A stretch of 64,000 nucleotides of DNA from a phage: NCBI GenBank assembly GCA_014685065.1, contig GCA_014685065.1_3930.1. One strand, 5' to 3'. The first letter of the stretch is position 1. Each line of letters starts with the position of its first letter. Shown here piece after piece: positions 1,420 through 30,929 of the stretch. The notes beneath the pieces were generated by a model. That model was not told the DNA's origin. It did no database searches and saw nothing but the letters and a program-made list of their open reading frames with translations. The position numbers were made by a program, and so were the translations under genes.

Positions 1420-1460
1420 ACAAAAAAGGCTCCCGTCAAAAGGAGCCTTAAAATTTTATT
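1420..1460. terminator. bidirectional rho-independent terminator between convergent thyA and minus-strand genes
   Basis: Hairpin GGCTCC-CGTCAAAA-GGAGCC flanked by A-run upstream and T-run downstream, so a U-tract follows the stem on both strands. Confidence 0.6.
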
Positions 1461-1827
1461 TTTCAGTATTCTTTGTGTTCTTCTCAGTAATAGCTTGGAG
1501 GGCTGATACTGATTGAGCCAGATTATTCACACTGTCAGAGAATTTATCAAGAGTTTTGGTAAGTTTTGCGTTTTCACCCTTAACATTCTCTAACTGAACT
1601 TTCTGGTTCTCCATCCCTAGCTGAATCAGTCTCATGTCAGACTGTAAATCACGAATAGCTGAATAGTTACTTTTGGAATAATTATCTAGCTGCTGTAACT
1701 TTGTTGTGACAGACACTTCTTGTTTACCACTTGAAACTTGCATAGTGGTATACATCCCAATAACACTAAAAATACCAACTACAATTGCACCAATATTATT
1801 TTTAAAAGCTTCCTCTAGCCACTTCAT
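1456..1827 (-). CDS. membrane-anchored coiled-coil protein (possible lysis-timing/holin-like, uncertain)
   Basis: 123 aa; strong SD AGGGGGAGAAATAA before ATG; N-terminal TM segment then heptad-rich region; lies just after tail fibre genes. Confidence 0.5.
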   Translation of the reverse strand: MKWLEEAFKNNIGAIVVGIFSVIGMYTTMQVSSGKQEVSVTTKLQQLDNYSKSNYSAIRDLQSDMRLIQLGMENQKVQLENVKGENAKLTKTLDKFSDSVNNLAQSVSALQAITEKNTKNTEK

Positions 1828-2022
1828 TTATTTCTCCCCCTTAAAAGCTTTTTCTAAGTTATCTACGAACTCATCATCAATAGGTGTGTCTGTTTTACTC
1901 GCAAGGTATCTTGCAAGCTTAAAGAACACTTTCTCAATCATGTATTCACTTAGAAGGGATAAAATGAGTTTCCAGAAGAAGCTACCTAGATTTTTTAGAA
2001 GAATTGCTAGGATTGTAGGCAT
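1828..2022 (-). CDS. small membrane protein
   Basis: 64 aa; SD GAGGTGA before ATG; one hydrophobic helix and charged C-terminus. Confidence 0.45.
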   Translation of the reverse strand: MPTILAILLKNLGSFFWKLILSLLSEYMIEKVFFKLARYLASKTDTPIDDEFVDNLEKAFKGEK

Positions 2023-2101: not shown

Positions 2102-4486
2102 TTAAGCAGTTCTTACCCAAGCCATTAACTTGTAGAACTGGTTAGTAACACTAAATGCTGACCCAGAACCTGTACCACCAGTGTTACCACTGACTGTGTG
2201 GCTGTGAGCACCAATACCTACAGAGTGGGAATGGTCGCCAGCACCGCTTGTAGTACCAGACCATGTATGTGTATGGTTACCAGTTGTGTTAGTGTTAGGG
2301 AATTTATTGTCCCTTCTGTCAAGCCAGTCAAGTGTTCTAGGGAGACTGTTACCAACTGTTGTATAACCGTACAAAGCATCACCACCATTAACTAATAACA
2401 AACCTAAGTGGTGAGCGTGGTTACCAGCAGCACTTGTTGTACCACTTACAGAGTGAGCATGACCACCAGTACTGTTAGTTCCCTTCGTACCATAATCAAA
2501 AGATGAAGTGGTAGCAGAGAAACTATGGGTGTGTGATGGTAAGTTACCAACAGCTAACGTCACAGAATCTGAACCACCTGTTGTAGCAACATCTGAACCG
2601 TTTGCTGCTGCAATTCTGATAGTTCTACCAACACCATTGTTCAGGTACGTCCAAGTTAACCCAGGAAGTGCTGTATTAGGGTCAACATTGCTGTTAAACC
2701 ATGTCACAATACCTACTGGATAGATTTTATTAAGGTCTGTAGAGTCACTAATTGCTTCTGCAATCTTCTGGTCAGTCTCTGCTTTAGTATATGCACCAAG
2801 CTCATCAGGGGTTGGTTTCTGAGCTTCGTTGTAAACCTTAGACCATCCAGCCTCAAAACCAAGTCTGTCTCTGGCTGTTCTGTACCACATCCCACCATTT
2901 TTGTAATCAAACATTAATTGTGCAGCAGGTGTTGATGACAATGAATTAACGAACATGTGCGAAACTAAACGGCTTGCCCCACCACCTTTGATTGTCTCAA
3001 TATAGATTCCTGAAGGTTGATTCCAAGCTACGCCACCATCTTCTTCTCTTACTGTGCCTCTGGCTGCTGACCAGATATACTTCGCATCTGTTGCAGATTG
3101 AACGTAGTATCTAGCATCTAAGTTAGAGAAATCAGATGGTTGAACTTGACCAGTGATAGCAAGACTCTTGTTAGCCACAATTACTGATGGTTCAAGGGCA
3201 ATTTGAGTGCCAGAGTAGCTGTTGTTCCAAGTAACCACGTTGGAATTGTTTCCTCCTACACCAATCCACCATCTAGAGGTGTTTGCGGTGTCAACACCAC
3301 GGATATACAAAGGTTGATTTTGTGTTAAATTCTTTACAATCAACCCTTCATTGTTAGCAACAATAGTTTGTGTATTCGTGAAAGTATTAGACACATTAAG
3401 TTTAGGGAGATTACTCAAAGTTCCTGCTGGGATATATCTAGAATCTATATTAGTCCAATCAGACGGTTGAACTTGACCAGTGATTTGGACTGTTCTGCTC
3501 ATGGCAATGGTGTTACCTAGTGAGATTTGTGTGTTTGCTAAGTAGTTATAGATGTTTACAGTGTTTTCATCGGTATCATTACCAATATACCACTTACGAG
3601 TTCCATCTGATTTTTTTGCTTGGATATACAAAGCAGCAGTTGTATCTACATTTTGCAGAGTGATAGCATTAGCATTCTTCTTAACAACAAAGTTAGTGAA
3701 AATATTAGAGCCACTAAAAGTATTATCACCAGCCAACTGTGCAAATTTCTGATTAGCCACTGTCTGAGTAAAATATCTAGCATCTAAGTTAGAGAAATCC
3801 GAAGGTTGAACTTGACCCATAACTCTCAGTGTCTTATTAAACGATGCTGTTGCATCAAGTGTCAACATTGAGCCAGTGGCGTGATTGTACAAATAAACAT
3901 TAGTATTGTTTGCATTTCCTTGCCCAACATACCAAGTTTGCTGGTTATTAGCATCCCTACCTTGAATATATGAAGCACCTGCATTGGTTGCTTTCTTAAG
4001 GGTTAACTGCTCACCATCAGTTACAATTGCTTGCCTAATGCTGAAGTTATTTGTAACAGCAAGCCTTGCATATCTTGCATCATTCTCTTCATTAGTTCTC
4101 ATCCCAAGCTCATTAGGACTTGGCTTATTCAGAGTGTGGTAAACAGTTGCTGACCTTGAAGCATCTGCAATAGTTAGTTTAAGACCGTTTGCGTTAATTT
4201 TAAAAGTCTTTAAAACATCCCCGATAGTAATCTCAGAAGAACCTGTTGGGTCAAATACTGCCTTACCGCCATAGAGTAACTTAACAATCCCTAAGTCACC
4301 TGTCATAGTACTACCAGCAATCTGAACAAATCTCTCAAGTTTAAAAGATGCTAAGAAGTCTTGATAGGTCATTCGACGGTCTTCATCACCCAGCATTTCA
4401 GGTCTCTTTTTAACTCTGACATGAAGAAGGTCATCTGAACGGATTGTGTCGATTGAGTTTAATTGACTCAATTTGTAATCTGCCAT
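2102..4486 (-). CDS. long tail fibre protein (receptor-binding) with His-x-His metal-binding-type repeats
   Basis: 794 aa; three internal ~90-aa repeats (ITGQVQPSD[WF]xN[IL]D[SA]RY); C-terminal GNHTHTWSG...[18 protein letters not shown] HxH motifs; ends ...AWVRTA like the neighbouring fibre. Confidence 0.7.
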
Positions 4487-4499
4487 TATAAATTTTCCT

Positions 4500-4524
4500 C
4501 TTAAAAGGGGCTATAAAGCCCCTG
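4500..4524 (-). terminator. rho-independent terminator between the two tail fibre genes
   Basis: Minus-sense hairpin GGGGCT-TTAT-AGCCCC followed by UUUU, then SD AAGAGG of the next gene. Confidence 0.45.
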
Positions 4525-4532
4525 TAAAGAAA

Positions 4533-5720
4533 TTAAGCTGTTCTCTGCCATACATACAGTACGAAGGATGGCTGTTCAATGTTGAAAGCTTGTCCACCAC
4601 CAACACTGTTCGTGTTTCCACTATGCGTATGCTCAGAAGAAGAAACTGTCACAGTACCATTGTGCGTATGCGAACCAATACCAACTGTGTGACTGTGAGC
4701 ACCAATACCCACCATATGGTTGTGGTCACCAGTTGTGTTAGTGGTAACACTGAAAGAGTGGGTGTGCGCACCAGCGACTTCACAGACAACATCTGCTGAG
4801 TACCACGATTGGTCATTCCTTGAAGACCAGACCATTGCAGGTCTCTCCGACAGACCACCACCTGCTTCATAAGTCAATCTGTGGTTGTGAGCACCAGCAG
4901 CACTTGTTGACCCACTACCAACGTGATTGTGGTTACCAGTTGTGTTAGTGGTCTTTGTTCCATAGTCAAAAGAGTTGGTAGTCTTAGTTCCATAATCAAA
5001 AGCTGAGATTGAAACAGTTGCATTATGAGTATGACCACCACCACTAAGAGACACAGAGTGTGAGTGTTGAGGCATGTTATTAACTGACAAAGTGACAGTT
5101 GAAGCACCAAATACAGAACCTGCTGGCCTTGTATCAGAGTCATAACCAACCAACGCCCTACCTTTTGAAACTAACTCCCAAGTACCTCCACAAATTAAGT
5201 ATGTAGAAGGGTTTGCAGAGTTCATAGAAAGATGGATAGTACCTACTGGATAAGAAGCCTGAACAGCCTTGTACAAGTTATTTACTGCTCTTGCTGTAGC
5301 ATACTTATCTGCATCTTCATTATACAGGTTAGATGTTGTCCAGTTCTGAACATTACTTAAACCAACCTGTGCCTTAGTTGTATTGTGTGGGTTACTCTTG
5401 TCCTTGATATGTTGCTGGACAAGGTTATTAACCTCTTCTGAAGACATAATCTGTAGATTTGCTCTTGCCTCAGCTACATTAACAATATCTGATAAGTTAT
5501 TTGCAGCGACTAACTGAAGAGCATTAATAACATTATCTAAACCAATTTGTGTTTTAGTAACACCATGAGGGTTATTTTTTAGGCTTGAGTGTGGGGCAAG
5601 TAATTGCTCAAGAGTACATCTCTTATCCTCAATACCCTGCTTAAGATGGAAGATATCACTAAGGTCAATTGGTAAGGCTGCTTGAGGCAAGGCACTAATT
5701 TGAATTTCACCTACTGCCAT
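4533..5720 (-). CDS. tail fibre protein (second receptor-binding paralogue) with HxH repeats
   Basis: 395 aa; duplicated SAFDYGTKTTN unit; HSHSV, GNHNH, GAHNH, GAHTH, GDHNH, GAHSH, GSHTH motifs; C-terminus ...VWQRTA shared with the 794-aa fibre. Confidence 0.65.
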   Translation of the reverse strand: MAVGEIQISALPQAALPIDLSDIFHLKQGIEDKRCTLEQLLAPHSSLKNNPHGVTKTQIGLDNVINALQLVAANNLSDIVNVAEARANLQIMSSEEVNNLVQQHIKDKSNPHNTTKAQVGLSNVQNWTTSNLYNEDADKYATARAVNNLYKAVQASYPVGTIHLSMNSANPSTYLICGGTWELVSKGRALVGYDSDTRPAGSVFGASTVTLSVNNMPQHSHSVSLSGGGHTHNATVSISAFDYGTKTTNSFDYGTKTTNTTGNHNHVGSGSTSAAGAHNHRLTYEAGGGLSERPAMVWSSRNDQSWYSADVVCEVAGAHTHSFSVTTNTTGDHNHMVGIGAHSHTVGIGSHTHNGTVTVSSSEHTHSGNTNSVGGGQAFNIEQPSFVLYVWQRTA

Positions 5721-5722
5721 TA

Positions 5723-13738
<8,016 letters not shown>

Positions 13739-25437: not shown

Positions 25438-25513
25438 TGGAGAATCCGAAGGGACTCGAACCCTTATAAACCTGTTTTGCAGACAGGCACATAGCCATTT
25501 CTGTCACGGATTC
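25438..25513 (-). tRNA. tRNA-Cys (anticodon GCA)
   Basis: Hand-folded cloverleaf: acceptor GAATCCG/CGGATTC, anticodon loop CTGCAAA, T-loop TTCGAGT, CCA encoded. Confidence 0.65.
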
Positions 25514-25517
25514 AAAT

Positions 25518-25610
25518 TGGAGGAAGATACCAGACTTGAACTGGTACACCGATTTCTCAGCTACTGGCAGTTTAGCAAACTGCTCCCTTACCTTTTAGGG
25601 TTAATCTTCC
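25518..25610 (-). tRNA. tRNA-Ser (anticodon GCU), class II
   Basis: 93 nt; acceptor GGAAGAT/ATCTTCC, anticodon loop TTGCTAA, long variable arm, T-loop TTCAAGT, CCA encoded. Confidence 0.6.
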
Positions 25611-25611
25611 A

Positions 25612-26346
25612 TTATTTCTGTAATGCGTTCTTCATTTCTGGTGTTGCAATAGTGTCAATTACACCAGTTTTACAGGCATCATCAAACCAGTCTGGTAAGA
25701 TACCTGCTAAGAACCCATTGATATTCGTTTTAAGGTACTCTGCAATAAGGGCAGCTTCTTCTTCAATCATCTGCACAACTTCATCTGCATAAGCTGTAAT
25801 CTTTGAGATACCTTCATTAATCTTACTGACAGCTTGGTTAGCTAAATCAGAAACAGTATCAAGACCCTTGTCAATAGCGTCTTGTAAGTCACTTAATACA
25901 TCGTTAACACTCTCTAGTGTACTGTTAATCGTATCAATAGCTTTTTGACCATATTCTGTAGCAACACCCATAATACCACTGAACGGTGTACAACCAACTT
26001 GTTCTCCTGCTGCACCCATAACATTGGAATATCCATTTGCTACCTGCATACGTGATGAAAACTCATCAATAGATTTTTGACCGTAGTCTGTCAGGGTCTT
26101 AGTAGTTGCTGTAGTGCTTGTAAGGCTTGTTGTAAAGCTGTTTAGAAGGACTGTTGTAAGTCCAGCAGCAACAAGTTTCTCCTGCATTGTAGGGTCTGTT
26201 ACAGAACTAATAGAGCTTACAAGTGATGTAGAAGCAGCTACGGTTCCACCGAGAACTGCTGCACCAGTAATAAGTGGGTTAGAAAACCCTTTACCGGTTT
26301 TTAAGAGATTAAAAATCTCCTTACCTTGTTCTGTCATCTCTTTCAT
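25612..26346 (-). CDS. hypothetical protein within tRNA cluster
   Basis: ORF track start 26409 overlaps tRNA-Phe; start moved to internal ATG (MKEMTEQ...); Ser/Thr-rich middle, helical C-terminus. Confidence 0.45.
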   Translation of the reverse strand: MKEMTEQGKEIFNLLKTGKGFSNPLITGAAVLGGTVAASTSLVSSISSVTDPTMQEKLVAAGLTTVLLNSFTTSLTSTTATTKTLTDYGQKSIDEFSSRMQVANGYSNVMGAAGEQVGCTPFSGIMGVATEYGQKAIDTINSTLESVNDVLSDLQDAIDKGLDTVSDLANQAVSKINEGISKITAYADEVVQMIEEEAALIAEYLKTNINGFLAGILPDWFDDACKTGVIDTIATPEMKNALQK

Positions 26347-26362
26347 TAAGCACCTTTGAAAT

Positions 26363-26439
26363 TGGTAGTCCAGTGGGATTTGAACCCTCTTCTCATGTTT
26401 TTCAGACACGCGCTTTAACCATATAAGCTACTTGGACTA
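26363..26439 (-). tRNA. tRNA-Phe (anticodon GAA)
   Basis: Acceptor TAGTCCA/TGGACTA, anticodon stem CGTGT/ACATG with loop CTGAAAA, T-loop TTCAAAT. Confidence 0.55.
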
Positions 26440-26444
26440 TAAAT

Positions 26445-26520
26445 TGGGGTGACCTACGGGATTTGAACCCGTATAGACCATGTTCACAGCATGGGTCATT
26501 GCCATTTATGATAAGGCCAC
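26445..26520 (-). tRNA. tRNA-His (anticodon GUG)
   Basis: Acceptor GTGGCCT/AGGTCAC, anticodon loop CTGTGAA, T-loop TTCAAAT, CCA encoded. Confidence 0.65.
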
Positions 26521-26551
26521 ATTTAAGGACTCTCGTAAGAACCCTTAGAAG

Positions 26552-26627
26552 TGGCAGCGGCATAAGGATTTGAACCTTAATAGGACAGCTTCAGAGACTG
26601 TTGCATTGCCAGTTATGCTATACCGCT
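26552..26627 (-). tRNA. tRNA-Gln (anticodon CUG)
   Basis: Acceptor AGCGGTA/TGCCGCT, D-stem GCAT/ATGC, anticodon loop CTCTGAA, T-stem TAAGG/CCTTA, CCA encoded. Confidence 0.6.
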
Positions 26628-26632
26628 AAATT

Positions 26633-26711
26633 TGGTACTCCATATCGGATTCGAACCGATACATAACACAGATTTTAAGTCTGGCCTCTCTGCCAATTGG
26701 AGTAATGGAGC
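26633..26711 (-). tRNA. tRNA with anticodon UAA (Leu-type) but class I architecture
   Basis: Acceptor GCTCCAT/ATGGAGT, A73, anticodon loop CTTAAAA, perfect T-arm ATCGG-TTCGAAT-CCGAT; short variable region. Confidence 0.45.
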
Positions 26712-26713
26712 AT

Positions 26714-26788
26714 TGGCGGGGGATGTTGGAATTGAACCAACTTCTTCGATTTCAAAGACCGAGGTTTTAACCTTGTAAACTAATCCCC
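26714..26788 (-). tRNA. tRNA-Gln (anticodon UUG)
   Basis: Anticodon stem TCGGT/ATCGA, loop CTTTGAA, T-arm GTTGG-TTCAATT-CCAAC, CCA encoded. Confidence 0.55.
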
Positions 26789-26797
26789 TTTAAATCT

Positions 26798-27355
26798 TTA
26801 CTTTCTCAGTGGATGAATAAAGAATGCCAACATAACTCTTTCCCTTGAGAATGCTCTTTCTTCTGGGACAACACTTTTTAGTTTCCATCCAATATAAATT
26901 CTCCAGTAAAACTGTTTACCAAAGACTTTAATTGATGGGATAAAAGCGAATAATCCCCAAGCATTACTGTTCCACATTAGGAGATAACCTGTCTGATTAT
27001 CTTCAGGGTCAGAACTTACGTTGATATTACCTTTCCACTTAGTAACATCTTTTACATCTCTTCCTAATACATGGTAAGAGAAGTTATAAGCTTTGTTTCT
27101 CCAGAGCCATCCGACTCTCTGCATGTAGACACCCAGCTTACCAATCTTTCTAATCTTAGCCCATCGTTCGATATGACCTTCGTCACCATCAATTGGATTG
27201 TCATATGTCTCCATCCATCTAAATCCGAAAGGTAAGTGGCCTTTCTTCTCACTGTAAAATGGAACTACGAAAGGTGCTAAGATAACTGCTAAGGTTGCTG
27301 CTAATGGTTCTAGCAAAGCTAGGAAAATCCATGAAGCATATTTTAAATATCTCAT
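26798..27355 (-). CDS. hypothetical membrane protein within tRNA cluster
   Basis: 185 aa; N-terminal hydrophobic segments, Trp-rich; sits exactly between two tRNAs. Confidence 0.5.
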   Translation of the reverse strand: MRYLKYASWIFLALLEPLAATLAVILAPFVVPFYSEKKGHLPFGFRWMETYDNPIDGDEGHIERWAKIRKIGKLGVYMQRVGWLWRNKAYNFSYHVLGRDVKDVTKWKGNINVSSDPEDNQTGYLLMWNSNAWGLFAFIPSIKVFGKQFYWRIYIGWKLKSVVPEERAFSRERVMLAFFIHPLRK

Positions 27356-27364
27356 CTAAATAGC

Positions 27365-27440
27365 CTCTTTAAATTGGCGCAGGATAAGGGATTCGAACCC
27401 CTATTAACAGCTTCGTAGACTGTTGCTCTATCCATTTGAA
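27365..27440 (-). tRNA. tRNA-Arg (anticodon ACG)
   Basis: Acceptor GCAGGAT/ATCCTGC, anticodon stem ACAGT/GCTGT, loop CTACGAA, T-loop TTCGAAT, CCA encoded. Confidence 0.65.
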
Positions 27441-27445
27441 CTAAT

Positions 27446-27523
27446 CCTGCAAAATTGGTGTTCCAAGACGGATTCGAACCGTCACTAGTACAAGGTTTGA
27501 GCTTGCATCCTCTGCCAATTGGG
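27446..27523 (-). tRNA. tRNA with anticodon CAA (Leu-type), class I architecture
   Basis: Acceptor GTTCCAG/TTGGAAC, A73, anticodon stem GCAAG/CTTGT, loop CTCAAAC, T-arm GACGG-TTCGAAT-CCGTC. Confidence 0.45.
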
Positions 27524-27524
27524 A

Positions 27525-27599
27525 TACTGGAACATGGTACTCACTAAAGGACTTGAACCTTTTTCTTCATCTTGTAAGGGTGGTGTTTTACCATATAAA
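27525..27599 (-). tRNA. tRNA, probable Val (anticodon UAC); weak anticodon stem
   Basis: Good acceptor, D and T arms (AAAGG-TTCAAGT-CCTTT); loop CTTACAA but anticodon stem has two C/A mismatches. Confidence 0.35.
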
Positions 27600-27604
27600 C
27601 TAAG

Positions 27605-27690
27605 CGAGTATGAAAGAGGTCTGAAGTTGTGCCGCTAACTCAACTCCGTGGAATTTGTTACGGTCTTCAGTTGACACCAGCGGTCTTTCA
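27605..27690 (-). repeat. structured spacer element (CUGAAGACCG family, copy e)
   Basis: Closing inverted repeat AGAGGTC...GACCTCT; internal CTGAAG...CTTCAG stem; contains ACGGTCTTCAG box shared with the other spacers. Confidence 0.4.
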
Positions 27691-27694
27691 CTTG

Positions 27695-27771
27695 ACCTCT
27701 GAATTGGTGCTGCTCACAGGACTCGAACCTGCATTTCCATCCTTACAAGGGATGTGTAATAGCCAATTATA
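27695..27771 (-). tRNA. tRNA-Thr (anticodon UGU)
   Basis: Acceptor GCTGCTT/GAGCAGC, anticodon stem CATCC/GGATG, loop CTTGTAA, CCA encoded. Confidence 0.65.
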
Positions 27772-27777
27772 CGAAAG

Positions 27778-27852
27778 CAGCATTGTTTGGAGCATCCAGA
27801 GGGAATCGAACCCTCAACCTCAGTTTGGAAGACTGTAATTTTCCCGTTTAAA
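27778..27852 (-). tRNA. tRNA-Gly (anticodon UCC)
   Basis: Acceptor GCATCCA/TGGATGC, anticodon loop CTTCCAA, T-arm GAGGG-TTCGATT-CCCTC. Confidence 0.6.
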
Positions 27853-27858
27853 CTATGG

Positions 27859-27934
27859 ATGCACTAATTGGTGGAGAAGCAGGGAATTGAACCCTGTACT
27901 TAAGTTTGCAAAACTTATGTTTTAACCATGTAAA
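27859..27934 (-). tRNA. tRNA-Ala (anticodon UGC)
   Basis: Anticodon stem TAAGT/ACTTA, loop TTTGCAA, T-arm CAGGG-TTCAATT-CCCTG, CCA encoded. Confidence 0.6.
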
Positions 27935-27940
27935 CTACAT

Positions 27941-28016
27941 CCCCAATGTTTGGTACAGGTGGAGGGAATTGAACCCATCGTCTTACTGATTAAGAGTCAG
28001 CCGCATAACCATTTTG
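27941..28016 (-). tRNA. tRNA-Lys (anticodon CUU)
   Basis: Acceptor GCAGGTG/CACCTGT, anticodon stem GCTGA/TCAGT, loop CTCTTAA, CCA encoded. Confidence 0.55.
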
Positions 28017-28023
28017 CTACACC

Positions 28024-28100
28024 TGCATTAATTTGGTACACCTAGAGAGATTCGAACTCACACTGAGCAGATTCTAAGTCTGCTGCCTCTACCAATTGGG
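28024..28100 (-). tRNA. tRNA with anticodon UAG (Leu-type), class I architecture
   Basis: Acceptor GCACCTA/TAGGTGT, A73, anticodon stem GCAGA/TCTGC, loop CTTAGAA, T-loop TTCGAAT. Confidence 0.45.
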
Positions 28101-28356
28101 CTATAGGTGCATTAAATCTTTTTAGAGAACTTCTAAGAACCTAAGCAACAAGGTTCCACAACAAGCTGTAATAACCTTAGAAGCCCTCTAAAAAGACCTA
28201 ATTTGGTCTTTGCATAGTCTTGTTTAATCCGGTGACTAGAACCTTTGGAGAGCTTGATATTATCTCTTCTCCGTGACACCTACTAGGTGCTTTACTGTGC
28301 GTGTACGACAATACACGAGGGATACCAAAGCAACATCCGAATGAAGCTTGGCTTTA

Positions 28357-28446
28357 AATCTTATTAGGCGGTAAGTAAAGGAGTCGAACCCTCACCGTAT
28401 CTCTACAGTGGCAACTGTTTTCAAGACAGTTTGGCTACCATTAGCC
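28357..28446 (-). tRNA. tRNA-Ser (anticodon UGA), class II
   Basis: ~90 nt; acceptor GGTAGGT/ACTTACC, perfect anticodon stem ACTGT/ACAGT, loop CTTGAAA, long variable arm; only CC of CCA encoded. Confidence 0.55.
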
Positions 28447-28459
28447 GCTACCTACCCCT

Positions 28460-28542
28460 AATAAGACTTTGGCATGGGACGGAGGAGTTGAACCACTTTG
28501 AAACGGTTTTGGAGGCCGTTGCTCATGCCTTAGAGTCTTAAC
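28460..28542 (-). tRNA. tRNA-like gene, possible Trp (anticodon CCA); atypical D-region and T-stem
   Basis: Perfect acceptor GTGGGAC/GTCCCAT with CCA; loop CTCCAAA; D-loop over-long and T-stem with mismatches, may be degenerate. Confidence 0.35.
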
Positions 28543-28684
28543 ATCGTCCCACACTATAATTCGAAGCTTACCGTATTTTCACAACACTGTAAAGCCCCTT
28601 CTCAGATTATTTACATGTTCTGGAAAACATGAGATACAGACCACCTCCTTACACGGAGACCCGATAAGGTCGTCTAAGCAATCT

Positions 28685-28761
28685 GCTAACTATTTGGCAC
28701 ACCCTACAGGATTCGAACCTGTAACTAACGATTTAGAAGACCGTTGCTCTATCCAATTGAA
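28685..28761 (-). tRNA. tRNA-Arg (anticodon UCU)
   Basis: Acceptor GCACCCT/AGGGTGT, anticodon stem ACGGT/ATCGT, loop CTTCTAA; D-arm near-identical to tRNA-Arg(ACG). Confidence 0.65.
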
Positions 28762-29008
28762 CTAAGGGTGCATTAATCTTTAAAGACTCTCTTAGAAAGC
28801 CCTTAAAGATGCCCACCTTATTAATCATACCGTGGGCGAGTACGCCAAATTCTTTGATGAGGGATTGGAAGACCTCACTGGTGTTTAGCCTATCAAGCTA
28901 CTGCCAGAAAAACATTGTCGTTTGCATTTATTTTAAATTTGCAAAATAGACGCTACGCAACGAAAACTAAGGTTACTATAAAGTGGTCACATCTCAATGT
29001 CAACAACT

Positions 29009-29084
29009 TTATTGAAATTGGTACTGTGAGAAGGATTCGAACCTTCTGCCTTTCGGTTATCAGCCGAATGCACATCCATATGTG
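29009..29084 (-). tRNA. tRNA-Ile (anticodon GAU)
   Basis: Acceptor GCTGTGA/TCACAGT, D-stem GCAC/GTGC, anticodon stem TTCGG/CCGAA, loop CTGATAA, CCA encoded. Confidence 0.65.
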
Positions 29085-29087
29085 CTT

Positions 29088-29573
29088 TCACAGCATTGTT
29101 ACCCCTTCGTGTACCTCTCTGTGGCAATTTGCACACAGTAATACACACTTATCAACTTCAGACTTCATTACCTCTATAGAGAAGTGTTTTTGTCCTACTG
29201 TGAAGTCCTTTGTATTAGGGTCTAAGTGGTGAAACTCTAAAGCCTTTATGCACTTATTGTATCCACAAATTGAGCAACAACCACCTTTGTAATCAACTAA
29301 AACCCTCTTAAGTTTGTCACGAGACTTTTTAACGTGTTGTGACTTCGCTTTCTTTTCTTCATCGGGGTTTTTGTATTGTTTCAGAATACCATTTGAAATA
29401 CATTCATCACAATACTTTCTTGATTTTGGTGTTTGTTTTCCACATGAATGACAAGAGCCTTCTTGTCTTCTTTTTGGATGACTCTTGTTGTTTACCCTTG
29501 CAGCACAAGAGCGTGAACAATATTTTCCGCCTTTAACGGCTTTGTTGTCACAATCTTTATTAGCACAAAACAT
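29088..29573 (-). CDS. HNH homing endonuclease with N-terminal Cys-rich zinc-finger repeats
   Basis: C-terminal HNH motif (CCSICGYN...LEFHHLDP...CVLLCANCHREVH); four CxxC-type pairs N-terminally; ORF-track start at 29732 would overlap tRNA-Met so start set at MFCANKDC. Confidence 0.7.
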   Translation of the reverse strand: MFCANKDCDNKAVKGGKYCSRSCAARVNNKSHPKRRQEGSCHSCGKQTPKSRKYCDECISNGILKQYKNPDEEKKAKSQHVKKSRDKLKRVLVDYKGGCCSICGYNKCIKALEFHHLDPNTKDFTVGQKHFSIEVMKSEVDKCVLLCANCHREVHEGVTML

Positions 29574-29589
29574 AATATCACCAACGAAT

Positions 29590-29666
29590 TGGAGGTTCAG
29601 ATGGGAATCGAACCCACATTCATAGGGCTTATGAGACCCCTGCATTACCTTATCTGCGACTGAACC
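29590..29666 (-). tRNA. tRNA-Met (anticodon CAU; elongator vs initiator vs Ile2 unresolved)
   Basis: Acceptor GGTTCAG/CTGAACC, anticodon stem GGGGT/GCCCT with G-U ends, loop CTCATAA, T-loop TTCGATT. Confidence 0.6.
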
Positions 29667-29670
29667 ATAT

Positions 29671-29746
29671 TGGTAGAAGTGGAGGGATTCGAACCCATCG
29701 CCTGTCAGATTAAAAGTCTGCCGCATCACCATTCTGCTACACTTCC
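29671..29746 (-). tRNA. tRNA-Lys (anticodon UUU)
   Basis: Anticodon loop CTTTTAA, T-arm similar to tRNA-Lys(CUU), CCA encoded. Confidence 0.6.
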
Positions 29747-29752
29747 ATTAAA

Positions 29753-29894
29753 ATTATCTTTGTAGATAAGCTATCCAGACTTGCTTAAGGTCTGTAGCGA
29801 TGTGCCTTGTTGGGTTTAAATCTAGAATTTACCCTTTCACTCTTTGTGGTCGCATACTCACAGGTAAGCTTAATAACTTATCTACAAAGATAAT
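29753..29894 (-). repeat. perfect 18-bp inverted repeat pair flanking a 106-bp core (hairpin RNA or MITE-like insertion)
   Basis: ATTATCTTTGTAGATAAG at 29753-29770 and exact reverse complement at 29877-29894; core holds CAGAC-TTGCTTAAG-GTCTG hairpin. Confidence 0.5.
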
Positions 29895-29895
29895 T

Positions 29896-30028
29896 ACCAG
29901 ACCGTTGTTTATCATCTTAAGTGCTACCATTACACCAACTCGACATCTGCCGAGTGAAGGAATCGAACCTTCGCCTTTTCTTTACCGGAGAAATAGATTG
30001 TTTAAGTTTTGCTGTAAACGGTCTTCTG
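29896..30028 (-). repeat. spacer element copy a (CCAGACC...GGTCTTCTG family) containing tRNA-like T-arm and D-arm in permuted order
   Basis: Closing stem AGACCGTT/AACGGTCT; internal GGCGAAGG-TTCGATT-CCTTC T-arm-like hairpin followed by GAGTTGGTGTAATGGTAGCAC D-arm-like segment. Confidence 0.4.
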
Positions 30029-30040
30029 TAAATTTGTTGA

Positions 30041-30116
30041 GCCAGACCAAGTTTTAAATTTTCAAAATTAAATTGGCTTGAAATTTCATACATTCTTGCT
30101 GTATTTGGTCTTCTGC
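30041..30116 (-). repeat. spacer element copy b (CCAGACC...GGTCTTCTG family)
   Basis: GCCAGACCAAG...TTGGTCTTCTG closing inverted repeat; conserved ACAGCAAG box in minus sense. Confidence 0.4.
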
Positions 30117-30202
30117 TCCTTTAAAGAATACTCGTAAGAACCCTTTAAGGGAGGGGCTAAATAGCCCTCTCAAAACATCATCTTGAAATACTTATTATAA
30201 TT

Positions 30203-30279
30203 TGGCGGTTACGAAGGGATTTGAACCCTCATCATCTCCCGTGACAGGGGAGTATTTTAACCAGTTAAACTACATAACC
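30203..30279 (-). tRNA. tRNA-Asp (anticodon GUC)
   Basis: Anticodon stem CTCCC/GGGAG, loop CTGTCAC, T-arm GAGGG-TTCAAAT-CCCTT, CCA encoded. Confidence 0.65.
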
Positions 30280-30285
30280 TTTATT

Positions 30286-30373
30286 TGGTGTGCCGTGTAG
30301 GAGTCGAACCTACCGAGTCTCAATGACAAGGGATTTACAGTCCCCACCGCTACCATCTACGGGATAACGACAC
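30286..30373 (-). tRNA. tRNA-Tyr (anticodon GUA), class II
   Basis: 88 nt; acceptor GTGTCGT/ACGGCAC, anticodon stem GGGGA/TCCCT, loop CTGTAAA, long variable arm, T-arm GTAGG-TTCGACT-CCTAC. Confidence 0.6.
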
Positions 30374-30442
30374 ATTTAATTTCTATTCAGGCTAAGGACT
30401 TGCACCTTACAAATCGGTGAGCAATCGCTTCTCTCCTAAATT

Positions 30443-30519
30443 TGGCGGTTAGTCAGGGATTCGAACCCTGTGCCATTCGCTTAACAGGCGACCGCACATA
30501 CCTTATGTGCTTCCTAACC
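30443..30519 (-). tRNA. tRNA-Asn (anticodon GUU)
   Basis: D-stem GCAC/GTGC, anticodon loop CTGTTAA, T-arm CAGGG-TTCGAAT-CCCTG, CCA encoded. Confidence 0.6.
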
Positions 30520-30529
30520 TTAATACATT

Positions 30530-30591
30530 GCCAGACCGTGTTTTTTCTTTTATCCGCAAAAAGTATTTTGTTGCTGAATACGGTCTTCTGC
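30530..30591 (-). repeat. spacer element copy c (CCAGACC...GGTCTTCTG family)
   Basis: GCCAGACCGTG...ATACGGTCTTCTG closing inverted repeat with ~45-nt structured loop. Confidence 0.4.
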
Positions 30592-30596
30592 AAAAT

Positions 30597-30672
30597 TGGA
30601 GGCGGGTGCAGGAGTCGAACCTGCCGATACCATGCTAATGAGACATGTGAGACGCCCTTTCTCTATACCCGC
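30597..30672 (-). tRNA. second CAU-anticodon tRNA (Met/fMet/Ile2 candidate)
   Basis: D-stem GAGA/TCTC, anticodon stem CATGT/GCATG, loop CTCATTA (unusual U at position 37), T-arm GCAGG-TTCGACT-CCTGC. Confidence 0.5.
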
Positions 30673-30683
30673 AATTCTTAATG

Positions 30684-30759
30684 ACCAGACCAAATCTCTT
30701 CTTTGTCCGATTTACCTTCAGATGAATAAGATTAAGTTTGCTGTAATTGGTCTTCTGTC
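30684..30759 (-). repeat. spacer element copy d (CCAGACC...GGTCTTCTG family)
   Basis: GACCAGACCAAA...ATTGGTCTTCTG closing inverted repeat; conserved ACAGCAAACTTAA box in minus sense. Confidence 0.4.
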
Positions 30760-30764
30760 AAAAC

Positions 30765-30842
30765 TGGCGTTCCAGAAGGGATTTGAACCCTCAAATATCC
30801 ACTTTGAAAGAGTGGTGACTTTACCATTTTGTCTACTGGAAC
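30765..30842 (-). tRNA. tRNA-Glu (anticodon UUC)
   Basis: Perfect acceptor GTTCCAG/CTGGAAC and anticodon stem CCACT/AGTGG, loop CTTTCAA, CCA encoded. Confidence 0.65.
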
Positions 30843-30849
30843 ATTAATT

Positions 30850-30929
30850 TGGTCTCCGTTGAAGGATTTGAACCCTCGACCCCTTGCTCCCAAAGCAAGT
30901 GCTGCTAAACCAAACTGAGCTAAACGGAG
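30850..30929 (-). tRNA. tRNA-Pro (anticodon UGG)
   Basis: Anticodon stem CTTGC/GCAAG, loop TTTGGGA; 3' half resembles bacterial tRNA-Pro (GGGGTCGAGGGTTCAAATCC); CCA encoded. Confidence 0.6.

Follow-up and report, generated by a model that had tools for sequence, protein, structure and literature searches.

The long tail fibre of phage T4 is built from four proteins; gp37 forms its distal part and requires gp38 and gp57A for folding. Its C-terminal part comprises a stem (residues 882-931 and 960-1009), a tip subdomain (932-959), and a collar domain, D10, that includes the C-terminus (PMC6957217). Receptor-specific phenotypes map to surface residues of 932-959, and T4 cannot function without the iron-binding histidines H929 and H931 (PMC6957217). 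One His-x-His (HxH) motif from each of the three chains forms a buried octahedral Fe site, and these sites are thought to register and stiffen the trimer (PMC6116203). Tips of this kind are the subject here. A 64,000-nucleotide (nt) stretch of phage DNA (GenBank assembly GCA_014685065.1, contig GCA_014685065.1_3930.1; hereafter the window) carries two adjacent genes for a short tail fibre (STF) of 395 amino acids (aa) and a long tail fibre (LTF) of 794 aa, each a single-protein fibre, unlike that of T4.

Fibres of this architecture are already published for the close relatives VpaE1, Sf14, and Bas63, so the current understanding is unchanged. The VpaE1 paper (2015) described both fibre proteins of that phage as homologous to the T4 gp37 adhesin (PMC4690856). 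In cryo-electron microscopy (cryo-EM) of Bas63 (Escherichia phage JohannRWettstein, MZ501086), both fibres are seen to have a collar, an HxH needle, and a head; the same paper (2025, Sci Adv) also gives HxH motif counts and places high variability in the tips and in the repeats of the LTF (PMC12609058). What the window appears to add is incremental: an STF with nine HxH motifs rather than seven, exact sharing of a head with a T-even phage, and, in some Salmonella phages related to it, sharing of a head between the two fibres of one genome. The two window proteins are very probably the STF and LTF of a Felixounavirus, with gp37-type tips in which an HxH needle acts as scaffold and the heads serve host recognition. 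FelixO1-like phages are employed against Salmonella and E. coli in biocontrol and therapy, and also in typing these bacteria, and for such uses the practical point would be that the receptor-determining part is the head, ∼35-45 residues between the His arrays, rather than the arrays.

The Fibre Gene Pair of a Felixounavirus

The window is DNA of a Felixounavirus (FelixO1-like) myophage, an E. coli phage. It is ∼93% identical to the E. coli Felixounavirus genomes LMP25, P54, and KhF2, whose annotations name both genes as tail fibres, and the STF and LTF proteins are 100% identical to two proteins on one public contig of 88,295 bp. Both open reading frames (ORFs) reported in the original prediction, which was made from the DNA letters without database searches, are confirmed; they lie on the minus strand, with 46 nt between them (Table 1).

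The fibre genes sit directly downstream of the genes for baseplate wedge protein 1 and the LTF-platform protein, both of which match the solved Bas63 baseplate (9NDY). The Bas63 platform protein, gp025, is where the long fibre attaches (PMC12609058). Downstream of the long fibre follow a 64-aa ORF, a 123-aa ORF, and convergent thymidylate synthase and dihydrofolate reductase genes, and this whole order (wedge, platform, short fibre, long fibre, small ORFs, convergent pair) recurs in the Felixounaviruses Alf5, Mushroom, SP2, and wV8, in SUSP1 (Suspvirus), and in Sf14 (Mooglevirus). Bas63 is syntenic as well, with wedge 2, wedge 1, LTF platform, STF, and LTF in the same succession (PMC12609058). 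Its gp26 is 76% identical to the window STF, rising to 98% over the N-terminal 60 aa, and its gp27 is 69% identical to the window LTF, with 96% over aa 1-124. Orthologous pairs of ∼390 aa and 780-792 aa stand in the same order in Sf14 (gp52/gp53) and VpaE1 (gp74/gp75); the Sf14 proteins share 49% (LTF) and ∼68% (STF) identity with those of the window. Given the conserved gene order and the Bas63 orthology, the two genes can be assigned as the STF and LTF of the genus.

The naming of these fibres is inconsistent between sources. The Bas63 record MZ501086.1 (L010, 2000-3148) calls bas63_0026 "long tail fiber protein" and gp27 "tail fiber protein"; bas63_0026 is the short fibre of the cryo-EM paper, and the Sf14 paper labels both fibres "long".

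Both Fibres End in a gp37-type Tip

The HxH motifs picked out in the original prediction are present, at aa 736 (GNHTHTWSG) and aa 750 of the LTF and at aa 276 (GAHNH) and aa 349 (GSHTH) of the STF. They belong to larger sets: six motifs in the LTF (aa 652, 676, and 690, then 738, 752, and 761) and nine in the STF (aa 219, 230, 264, and 278, then 319, 333, 342, 351, and 364). Shuffling each protein 5000 times yields a mean of 0.35 motifs (maximum 3) for the LTF and 1.4 (maximum 6) for the STF; the observed counts are far above these values, so the enrichment is not due to chance. Nine is also the most frequent count among STF homologues, which have from 6 to 11.

A phmmer search of the PDB matches LTF aa 647-773 to 2XGF, the T4 gp37 tip (E value 3e-21), and STF aa 146-367 to the same structure (E 2e-26). 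The motifs fall in one register. In T4 gp37 they start at 883, 915, and 929 and, after a 37-residue gap, at 966, 980, 989, and 998. Read as descending spacings, gap, and ascending spacings, the pattern is 32, 14 / 37 / 14, 9, 9 in T4; 24, 14 / 48 / 14, 9 in the LTF; and 11, 34, 14 / 41 / 14, 9, 9, 13 in the STF, whose ascending 14, 9, 9 is that of T4 (966/980/989/998). All three proteins have two arrays flanking a His-free insert. Relative to T4, the STF has one extra site in each needle strand, and the LTF is missing the last ascending site and one FDYGTK unit. The likeness to gp37 extends to the FDYGTK units themselves, the collar, and the last residues: T4 ends in ...NYIVRLA, the LTF in ...MAWVRTA, and the STF in ...YVWQRTA, so that a shared extreme C-terminus, as originally predicted, is indeed present. 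The AWVRTA terminus is found in 119 of 120 LTF homologues. The differences from gp37 are that relatedness is confined to the last ∼210-250 aa, with 36-38% identity there, and that the seven HxH motifs of T4 compare with six and nine in the window.

The two fibres had been called paralogous. This holds for the C-terminal ∼250 aa, where LTF aa 549-794 and STF aa 130-395 are 34% identical (blastp E 2e-37); between the N-terminal parts no similarity is detectable. The LTF, STF, and T4 tips have 36-38% mutual identity; the two window tips are no nearer to one another than to T4, so recent paralogy does not apply to them. A recent duplication of the tip within this genome was rejected on these figures and because likeness at the DNA level is limited to short His-box stretches. 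The two tips are instead members of one module family.

A second duplication was judged in a similar way. The original prediction described an exact repeat of SAFDYGTKTTN in the short fibre; that string occurs once, and the unit that does recur exactly is the shorter FDYGTKTTN, in tandem at aa 241 and 251 (period 10; aa 241-259, window 4944-5000) in the descending needle. T4 gp37 has the same two-unit arrangement, which marks the duplication as an old feature of the needle. Recent duplication was rejected: four synonymous differences separate the DNA copies, and T4 as well as 39 of the 72 STF homologues likewise have two units.

The word "short" applies to the 395-aa protein by length only. 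Up to an E value of 1, the phmmer matches of the STF and LTF in the PDB contain no gp12 chain, and the STF is a gp37-tip protein rather than a gp12 homologue. The original prediction also had HxH arrays coordinating iron in both the long and the short fibre tips of T4, which is accurate for gp37; the gp12 crystal structure has a single HxH, and the bound metal is zinc (PMC6116203). With these amendments, the proposal that both C-termini are fibre tips of the T4 gp37 type is well supported by the 2XGF matches and the common HxH register, and the collar, needle, and head seen by cryo-EM in Bas63 agree with it (PMC12609058).

Comparison with the nearest relatives shows where such tips are constant and where they are not. 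Bas63 and the window have the same domain plan on both fibres and six LTF motifs each, and the LTF site next to the head has an extra histidine in both, as HAHH in the window and HHNH in Bas63. The STF has nine motifs in the window and seven in Bas63, so the window STF needle is likely the longer of the two. Between the heads identity is only 12-25%. In Sf14 the LTF has four motifs only and a much longer head insert.

By analogy with T4 and Bas63, each window fibre would be a homotrimer whose genus-conserved N-terminal domain binds the baseplate and whose C-terminus forms a T4 gp37-type tip. From a gp10/gp12-like collar each chain would run down a thin needle, form a small distal head, and return up the needle to the collar. 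Such a path would account for the conservation of the extreme C-terminus, as the chain ends back in the collar. At each HxH the three chains together would form one buried six-histidine metal site, iron in the case of T4, with six predicted sites in the LTF (3+3) and nine in the STF (4+5) compared with seven in T4 (3+4). A trimeric, six-stranded needle holding a metal ion in every HxH layer would be in keeping with the low-resolution cryo-EM of the Bas63 orthologues. These sites would register and stiffen the needle and make no host contact. Host recognition is assigned to the head between the arrays, which may act as an exchangeable specificity cassette with conserved His-box flanks. In the LTF, three gp37_trimer repeats and an exchangeable domain of the P2/Mu/P1 type (aa 461-583) would come in addition.

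The Head Is the Variable Part of the Tip

Segment identities between the window and six reference phages of three genera, plus Bas63, fall to a minimum at the head. The collar is 74-87% identical in the STF and 66-100% in the LTF, the needle strands are 56-77% and 48-83% identical, and the C-terminal strand is 82-100% and 74-100% identical. The corresponding values for the head are 6-25% in the STF and 2-16% in the LTF. Across the 72 STF homologues, fractional identity to the window STF is 0.26-0.34 at aa 281-320 and higher on either side. The HxH histidines are invariant or at least 90% conserved. Because the histidines are conserved and the head is hypervariable, the needle is best read as scaffold and the head as the specificity element, which is likely to correspond to LTF aa 693-735 and STF aa 281-316. 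The arrays themselves would then serve the needle as structural metal sites, buried within it, rather than form a receptor-binding surface. In the LTF, variability is also found in aa 461-560 and in the core of each of the three repeats.

Heads as Exchangeable Cassettes

The window LTF shares its head with a phage of another family. The head is 100% identical in protein sequence to that of gp37 of Tequatrovirus AV122 (OR352952; L009, 3359-6562, minus strand), and over LTF aa 657-765, head included, the two proteins are 90% identical, with 91% DNA identity over 304 nt (window 2205-2508). Outside the shared region AV122 gp37 is T4-like (62% identical to full-length T4 gp37) and has no relation to the LTF of Felixounaviruses; its tip holds eight HxH motifs, and a gp38 chaperone gene adjoins it. 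DNA likeness between the LTF and T4 gene 37 amounts to one 56-nt His-box stretch (window 2196-2251, 93%). The AV122 match points to a recent exchange of a specificity cassette between Straboviridae and Ounavirinae.

The AV122 match also suggests a ligand. AV122 gp37 is a predicted adhesin, and the phage fails to infect waaR or waaC lipopolysaccharide (LPS) mutants of strain ECOR4 (PMC10844046). Because the two heads are identical and AV122 needs distal outer-core sugars, the window LTF is specifically predicted to have a ligand in the distal LPS outer core, like AV122.

The short fibre head has a different distribution. Its type is present in ∼32 Felixounavirus-like records of the phage collection searched (at least 91% aa identity), and the sole other match in that collection is gp37 of the T-even phage VR7, at 46%. 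At least 31 head types can be distinguished among 68 STF representatives. A T4-type head (YIEAWNGTG...) occurs among the STFs in P0016 and P0017 and among the LTFs in P0220 and phage L27. In Mushroom (L004, 384-4120) and SP2 (L005, 388-3940) near-identical heads are found on the phage's own STF and LTF, with 85-87% DNA identity over 78-195 nt; in SP2 the head sequence GGRYGGDSIGGKQRVQVSGTNQ is present in both fibres. The latter two cases suggest head exchange between the two fibre genes of one genome and a single shared receptor.

Taken together, these observations may be seen as reflecting one shared pool of gp37-type heads, moved by recombination at His-box DNA among T-even gp37, Felixounavirus LTF, and STF, including movement between the two fibre genes of one phage; we consider the chances of this about even. 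If it is true, head type alone would predict receptor specificity, the LTF ligand would be common to the window phage and AV122, and the STF head type would be essentially restricted to Felixounavirus-like records within the phage collection searched. Work attributed to Tetart and colleagues (1996/1998) reportedly described conserved His boxes that flank exchangeable adhesin segments in T-even phages. Head sharing with T-even phages and within a genome fits this long-standing idea of His-box exchange. With modular heads held in common with T-even phages, the His-box flanks could serve as a rational swap boundary for fibre engineering.

The original prediction held that two distinct tips imply dual receptor specificity. 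The window STF and LTF heads have no sequence similarity, and because they are unrelated the two fibres most likely recognize different surface structures. Dual specificity is plausible on these grounds, as a candidate property of this phage. Dual heads are not a general rule, since the Mushroom and SP2 fibres carry nearly one head type.

Weighing the Alternatives

The strongest rival to divided recognition is that both fibres bind the same receptor, for example LPS core, with the STF engaging after the LTF, so that the two are redundant or cooperative. All characterized Felixounaviruses are LPS-dependent, and the shared heads of Mushroom and SP2 indicate that the genus tolerates one head type on two fibres. 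Against this stand the dissimilar window heads and their different distributions, the LTF head occurring also in a T-even gp37 and the STF head in ∼32 Felixounavirus-like records with a 46% relative in VR7. A common receptor is therefore a possible but doubtful reading for this phage.

Next is the proposal that the STF is a sheath-bound brace or trigger and not mainly a receptor-binding fibre, which draws on the position of its head against the tail sheath at rest. Sheath proteins are highly conserved in the genus, where most of the structural proteins differ by only slightly over 5%, yet the head is the most variable STF segment, with its 31 or more types. Host-driven diversifying selection explains such variation, and a conserved contact within the virion does not; moreover, the long fibres of T4 likewise rest against the tail when retracted. 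This role is improbable as the main function of the STF.

Least probable is the original proposal, which gives the role of receptor-binding surface to the HxH-rich stretches and the shared C-terminus, with metal histidines recognizing the host. In its favour, the arrays fall within the C-terminal region with which T4 binds its receptor, where H929 and H931 are essential. Against it, the Fe-coordinating histidines of T4 lie buried along the three-fold axis, and receptor phenotypes map to the surface of 932-959. In the window fibres no part of the tip is better conserved than the HxH histidines and the C-terminal strand, and the most variable segment is the one between the arrays; a specificity determinant in phages with different hosts should show the reverse. 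The C-terminus, which T4 shares as ...VRLA, is by homology back at the collar, far from the distal end.

Several points weigh against assigning host recognition to gp37-type heads on an HxH scaffold. In the LTF the three repeats and aa 461-560 are also highly variable, and host contacts may therefore extend past the head. The literature on Felixounavirus contains no experiment linking a receptor to either fibre, and the receptor mechanism of Felix O1 has been called elusive. Host-range mutant papers on the genus offer only two variant positions, aa 497 and aa 534, in a Salmonella phage fibre described as "gp37-like", without a defined receptor. Bas63 virions have the STF head resting against the sheath of the tail (PMC12609058), and this head may have a role in fibre retraction or signalling. 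The LPS dependence of AV122 could come from its short fibres and not from the gp37 head.

Structural modelling adds further points of this kind. The AlphaFold2 model of the STF (59-sequence alignment), a monomer of what would be an intertwined trimer, has a mean predicted local distance difference test score (pLDDT) of 67.4, with the head below 50, and a predicted template modelling score (pTM) of 0.31. Its beta-strands flank a low-confidence segment, aa 278-312, and weakly suggest a hairpin with a distal insert. Foldseek finds no significant match to this model in the PDB (best E 0.13); its long beta-hairpins drew pore-forming toxins, and the one resemblance to T4 gp10, a weak one, was in the collar. 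The model of LTF aa 460-794 has a pLDDT of 38.7 and is unusable. The fibre density of Bas63 was, according to its authors, not good enough for side chains (PMC12609058), and the proposed metal binding, trimer geometry, and receptor role of the heads thus draw on T4 homology, the low-resolution cryo-EM of orthologues, and the pattern of variability. A tblastn search with T4 gp38 of the 64-kb window (∼73% of an ∼88-kb genome) gives a best E of 3.9 and no homologue; the folding route may differ from that of T4. Felixounavirus fibres with gp37-type tips and host-recognizing heads remain, with these points counted, the reading that we consider very probable.

Domain Organization of the Two Fibres

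Outside the tip the two proteins are built differently (Table 1). STF aa 1-140 are 75-98% identical among the six Ounavirinae and Bas63. The collar that follows matches PF21939 Gp10_C (E 2.4e-18, 67.8 bits; cut-off 27) and the T4 gp10 chains 2FKK and 5HX2 (E ∼2e-5). The LTF collar scores 22.9 bits with the same family, under the cut-off of 27, and is aligned to the STF collar inside the blastp high-scoring pair of E 2e-37.

The LTF anchor, aa 1-124, is 73-98% identical among relatives. It is followed by the three repeats noted in the original prediction, which gave their length as ∼90 aa. Each is in fact 106-113 aa long, and the best stretch matching Pfam is 86 aa of a 95-position model. The repeats have 33-42% pairwise identity and every one ends in GQVQPSD; PF20744 gp37_trimer matches all three (E 1.6e-62, 208 bits; cut-off 21.7). 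They also match the C-terminal region of T7 gp17 (4A0T), weakly, at E 9e-4.

Between the repeats and the collar lies a domain of another type. PF12604 gp37_C matches LTF aa 484-583 (E 3.9e-15, 56.2 bits; cut-off 22.5), and residues 331-427 of Mu S' (8JU3) correspond to LTF aa 477-576 (E 1.5e-20), with P2, P1, and L-413C fibres at 42-47% identity; tblastn hits the Mu fibre as well as those of P2 and P1. In the LTF this P2/Mu/P1-type domain is internal and a T4-type tip comes after it. No Mu-type chaperone is reported in Ounavirinae. Among relatives aa 461-583 are 15-79% identical, and in LTFs of ∼840-856 aa (P0156, P0195, and others; wV8, L008; Mushroom, L004) an unrelated segment of ∼140 aa replaces aa 472-551. 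The ∼855-aa variants keep the N-terminal 471 aa and have a tip that is 91% identical. The domain can accordingly be regarded as a second exchangeable module, upstream of the tip. With aa 472-551 swapped while the tip stays 91% identical, the LTF is a mosaic in which an Ounavirinae anchor is followed by repeats, then by a P2/Mu-type domain, and finally by a T4-type tip.

Table 1. Positions in the window of the fibre genes, their predicted domains, and neighbouring features
Feature	Position	Strand	Basis or remark
STF (short tail fibre), 395 aa	4533..5720	-	Bas63 gp26 orthologue; phrog_2097 (tail fiber) E 3.8e-136
STF aa 1-140, predicted N-terminal baseplate-binding domain and helix-and-turn rod	5301..5720	-	Role from Bas63 cryo-EM (PMC12609058)
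STF aa 141-217, collar (gp10 C-terminal / gp37 collar fold)	5070..5300	-	Pfam PF21939 Gp10_C
STF aa 218-280, descending needle, HxH 219, 230, 264, 278	4881..5069	-	Aligns with T4 gp37 stem 882-931
STF aa 281-316, head (predicted receptor-binding), RLTYEAGGGLSERPAMVWSSRNDQSWYSADVVCEVA	4773..4880	-	Most variable part of STF
STF aa 317-378, ascending needle, HxH 319, 333, 342, 351, 364	4587..4772	-	
STF aa 379-395, conserved C-terminal strand, ends VWQRTA	4536..4586	-	Collar return by homology
LTF (long tail fibre), 794 aa	2102..4486	-	Bas63 gp27 orthologue; phrog_4277 full length, 1330 bits
LTF aa 1-124, predicted N-terminal baseplate-binding domain	4115..4486	-	Attaches to LTF-platform trimer; role from Bas63 cryo-EM (PMC12609058)
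LTF aa 125-452, three tandem ∼110-aa repeats (125-230, 231-343, 344-452)	3131..4114	-	
LTF aa 461-583, P2 gpH / Mu gpS / P1 S type domain	2738..3106	-	Pfam PF12604 gp37_C
LTF aa 586-650, collar	2537..2731	-	Aligns with STF and T4 collars
LTF aa 651-692, descending needle, HxH 652, 676, 690 (last as HAHH), one FDYGTK unit	2411..2536	-	
LTF aa 693-735, head (predicted receptor-binding)	2282..2410	-	
LTF aa 736-775, ascending needle, HxH 738, 752, 761	2162..2281	-	
LTF aa 776-794, conserved C-terminal strand, ends AWVRTA	2105..2161	-	
GC-rich hairpin AGGGGCU-UUAU-AGCCCCU (7-bp stem, 4-nt loop), then UUUU	4506..4523	-	
LTF-platform protein, 100 aa	5723..6025	-	9NDY_S "LTF platform protein (gp025)", E 1.2e-63, full length
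Baseplate wedge protein 1, 285 aa; Bas63 gp024 orthologue	6025..6882	-	9NDY_J, E 2.3e-181, full length
64-aa ORF	1828-2022	-	Directly downstream of LTF
123-aa ORF	1456-1827	-	After 64-aa ORF
Thymidylate synthase, 299 aa	518-1417	+	Converges on fibre operon
Dihydrofolate reductase, 162 aa	28-516	+	Converges on fibre operon

Intergenic Hairpins and Neighbouring Genes

A hairpin separates the two fibre genes. On one side of it is the STF stop codon (4533-4535), on the other the ribosome-binding site of the LTF, GAGG (4497-4500), with the LTF start at 4486. The minimum free energy of the hairpin is -16.8 kcal/mol (z-score -2.0), and a Rho-independent terminator is annotated at the equivalent site in the wV8 record. 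The hairpin might reduce expression of the LTF compared with the STF. In Bas63 the number of long fibres per virion ranges from 0 to 6. In a promoter scan, the region had fewer sites than its shuffled versions.

At the other end of the operon, a second hairpin that is terminator-like in both directions (window 1426-1449) lies between thymidylate synthase on the plus strand and the fibre and small-ORF operon on the minus strand. The convergence of the dihydrofolate reductase and thymidylate synthase genes on the fibre operon is annotated likewise in all relatives fetched.

The 64-aa and 123-aa ORFs keep their position in all Ounavirinae examined, and each has an N-terminal stretch that looks hydrophobic by eye. 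Their PHROG families have no known function. The counterpart of the 123-aa ORF is labelled "putative holin" in SUSP1 and Sf14, and the Sf14 paper reports gp55 ("Holin or lysozyme") in virions by mass spectrometry. The two ORFs may have a role in fibre assembly.

A Felixounavirus-type LTF tip, with 88% DNA identity, is also found at 85953-86558 of GenBank GU169904.1 (H167), "Staphylococcus phage SA1", which is probably a mixed or misassigned record. Farther along the window, a cluster of 26 tRNA genes occupies 25438-30929 on the minus strand, with two genes for tRNA-Met, three for tRNA-Leu, and two each for Gln, Arg, Lys, and Ser; 26 tRNAs are likewise reported for the related phage Sf14.

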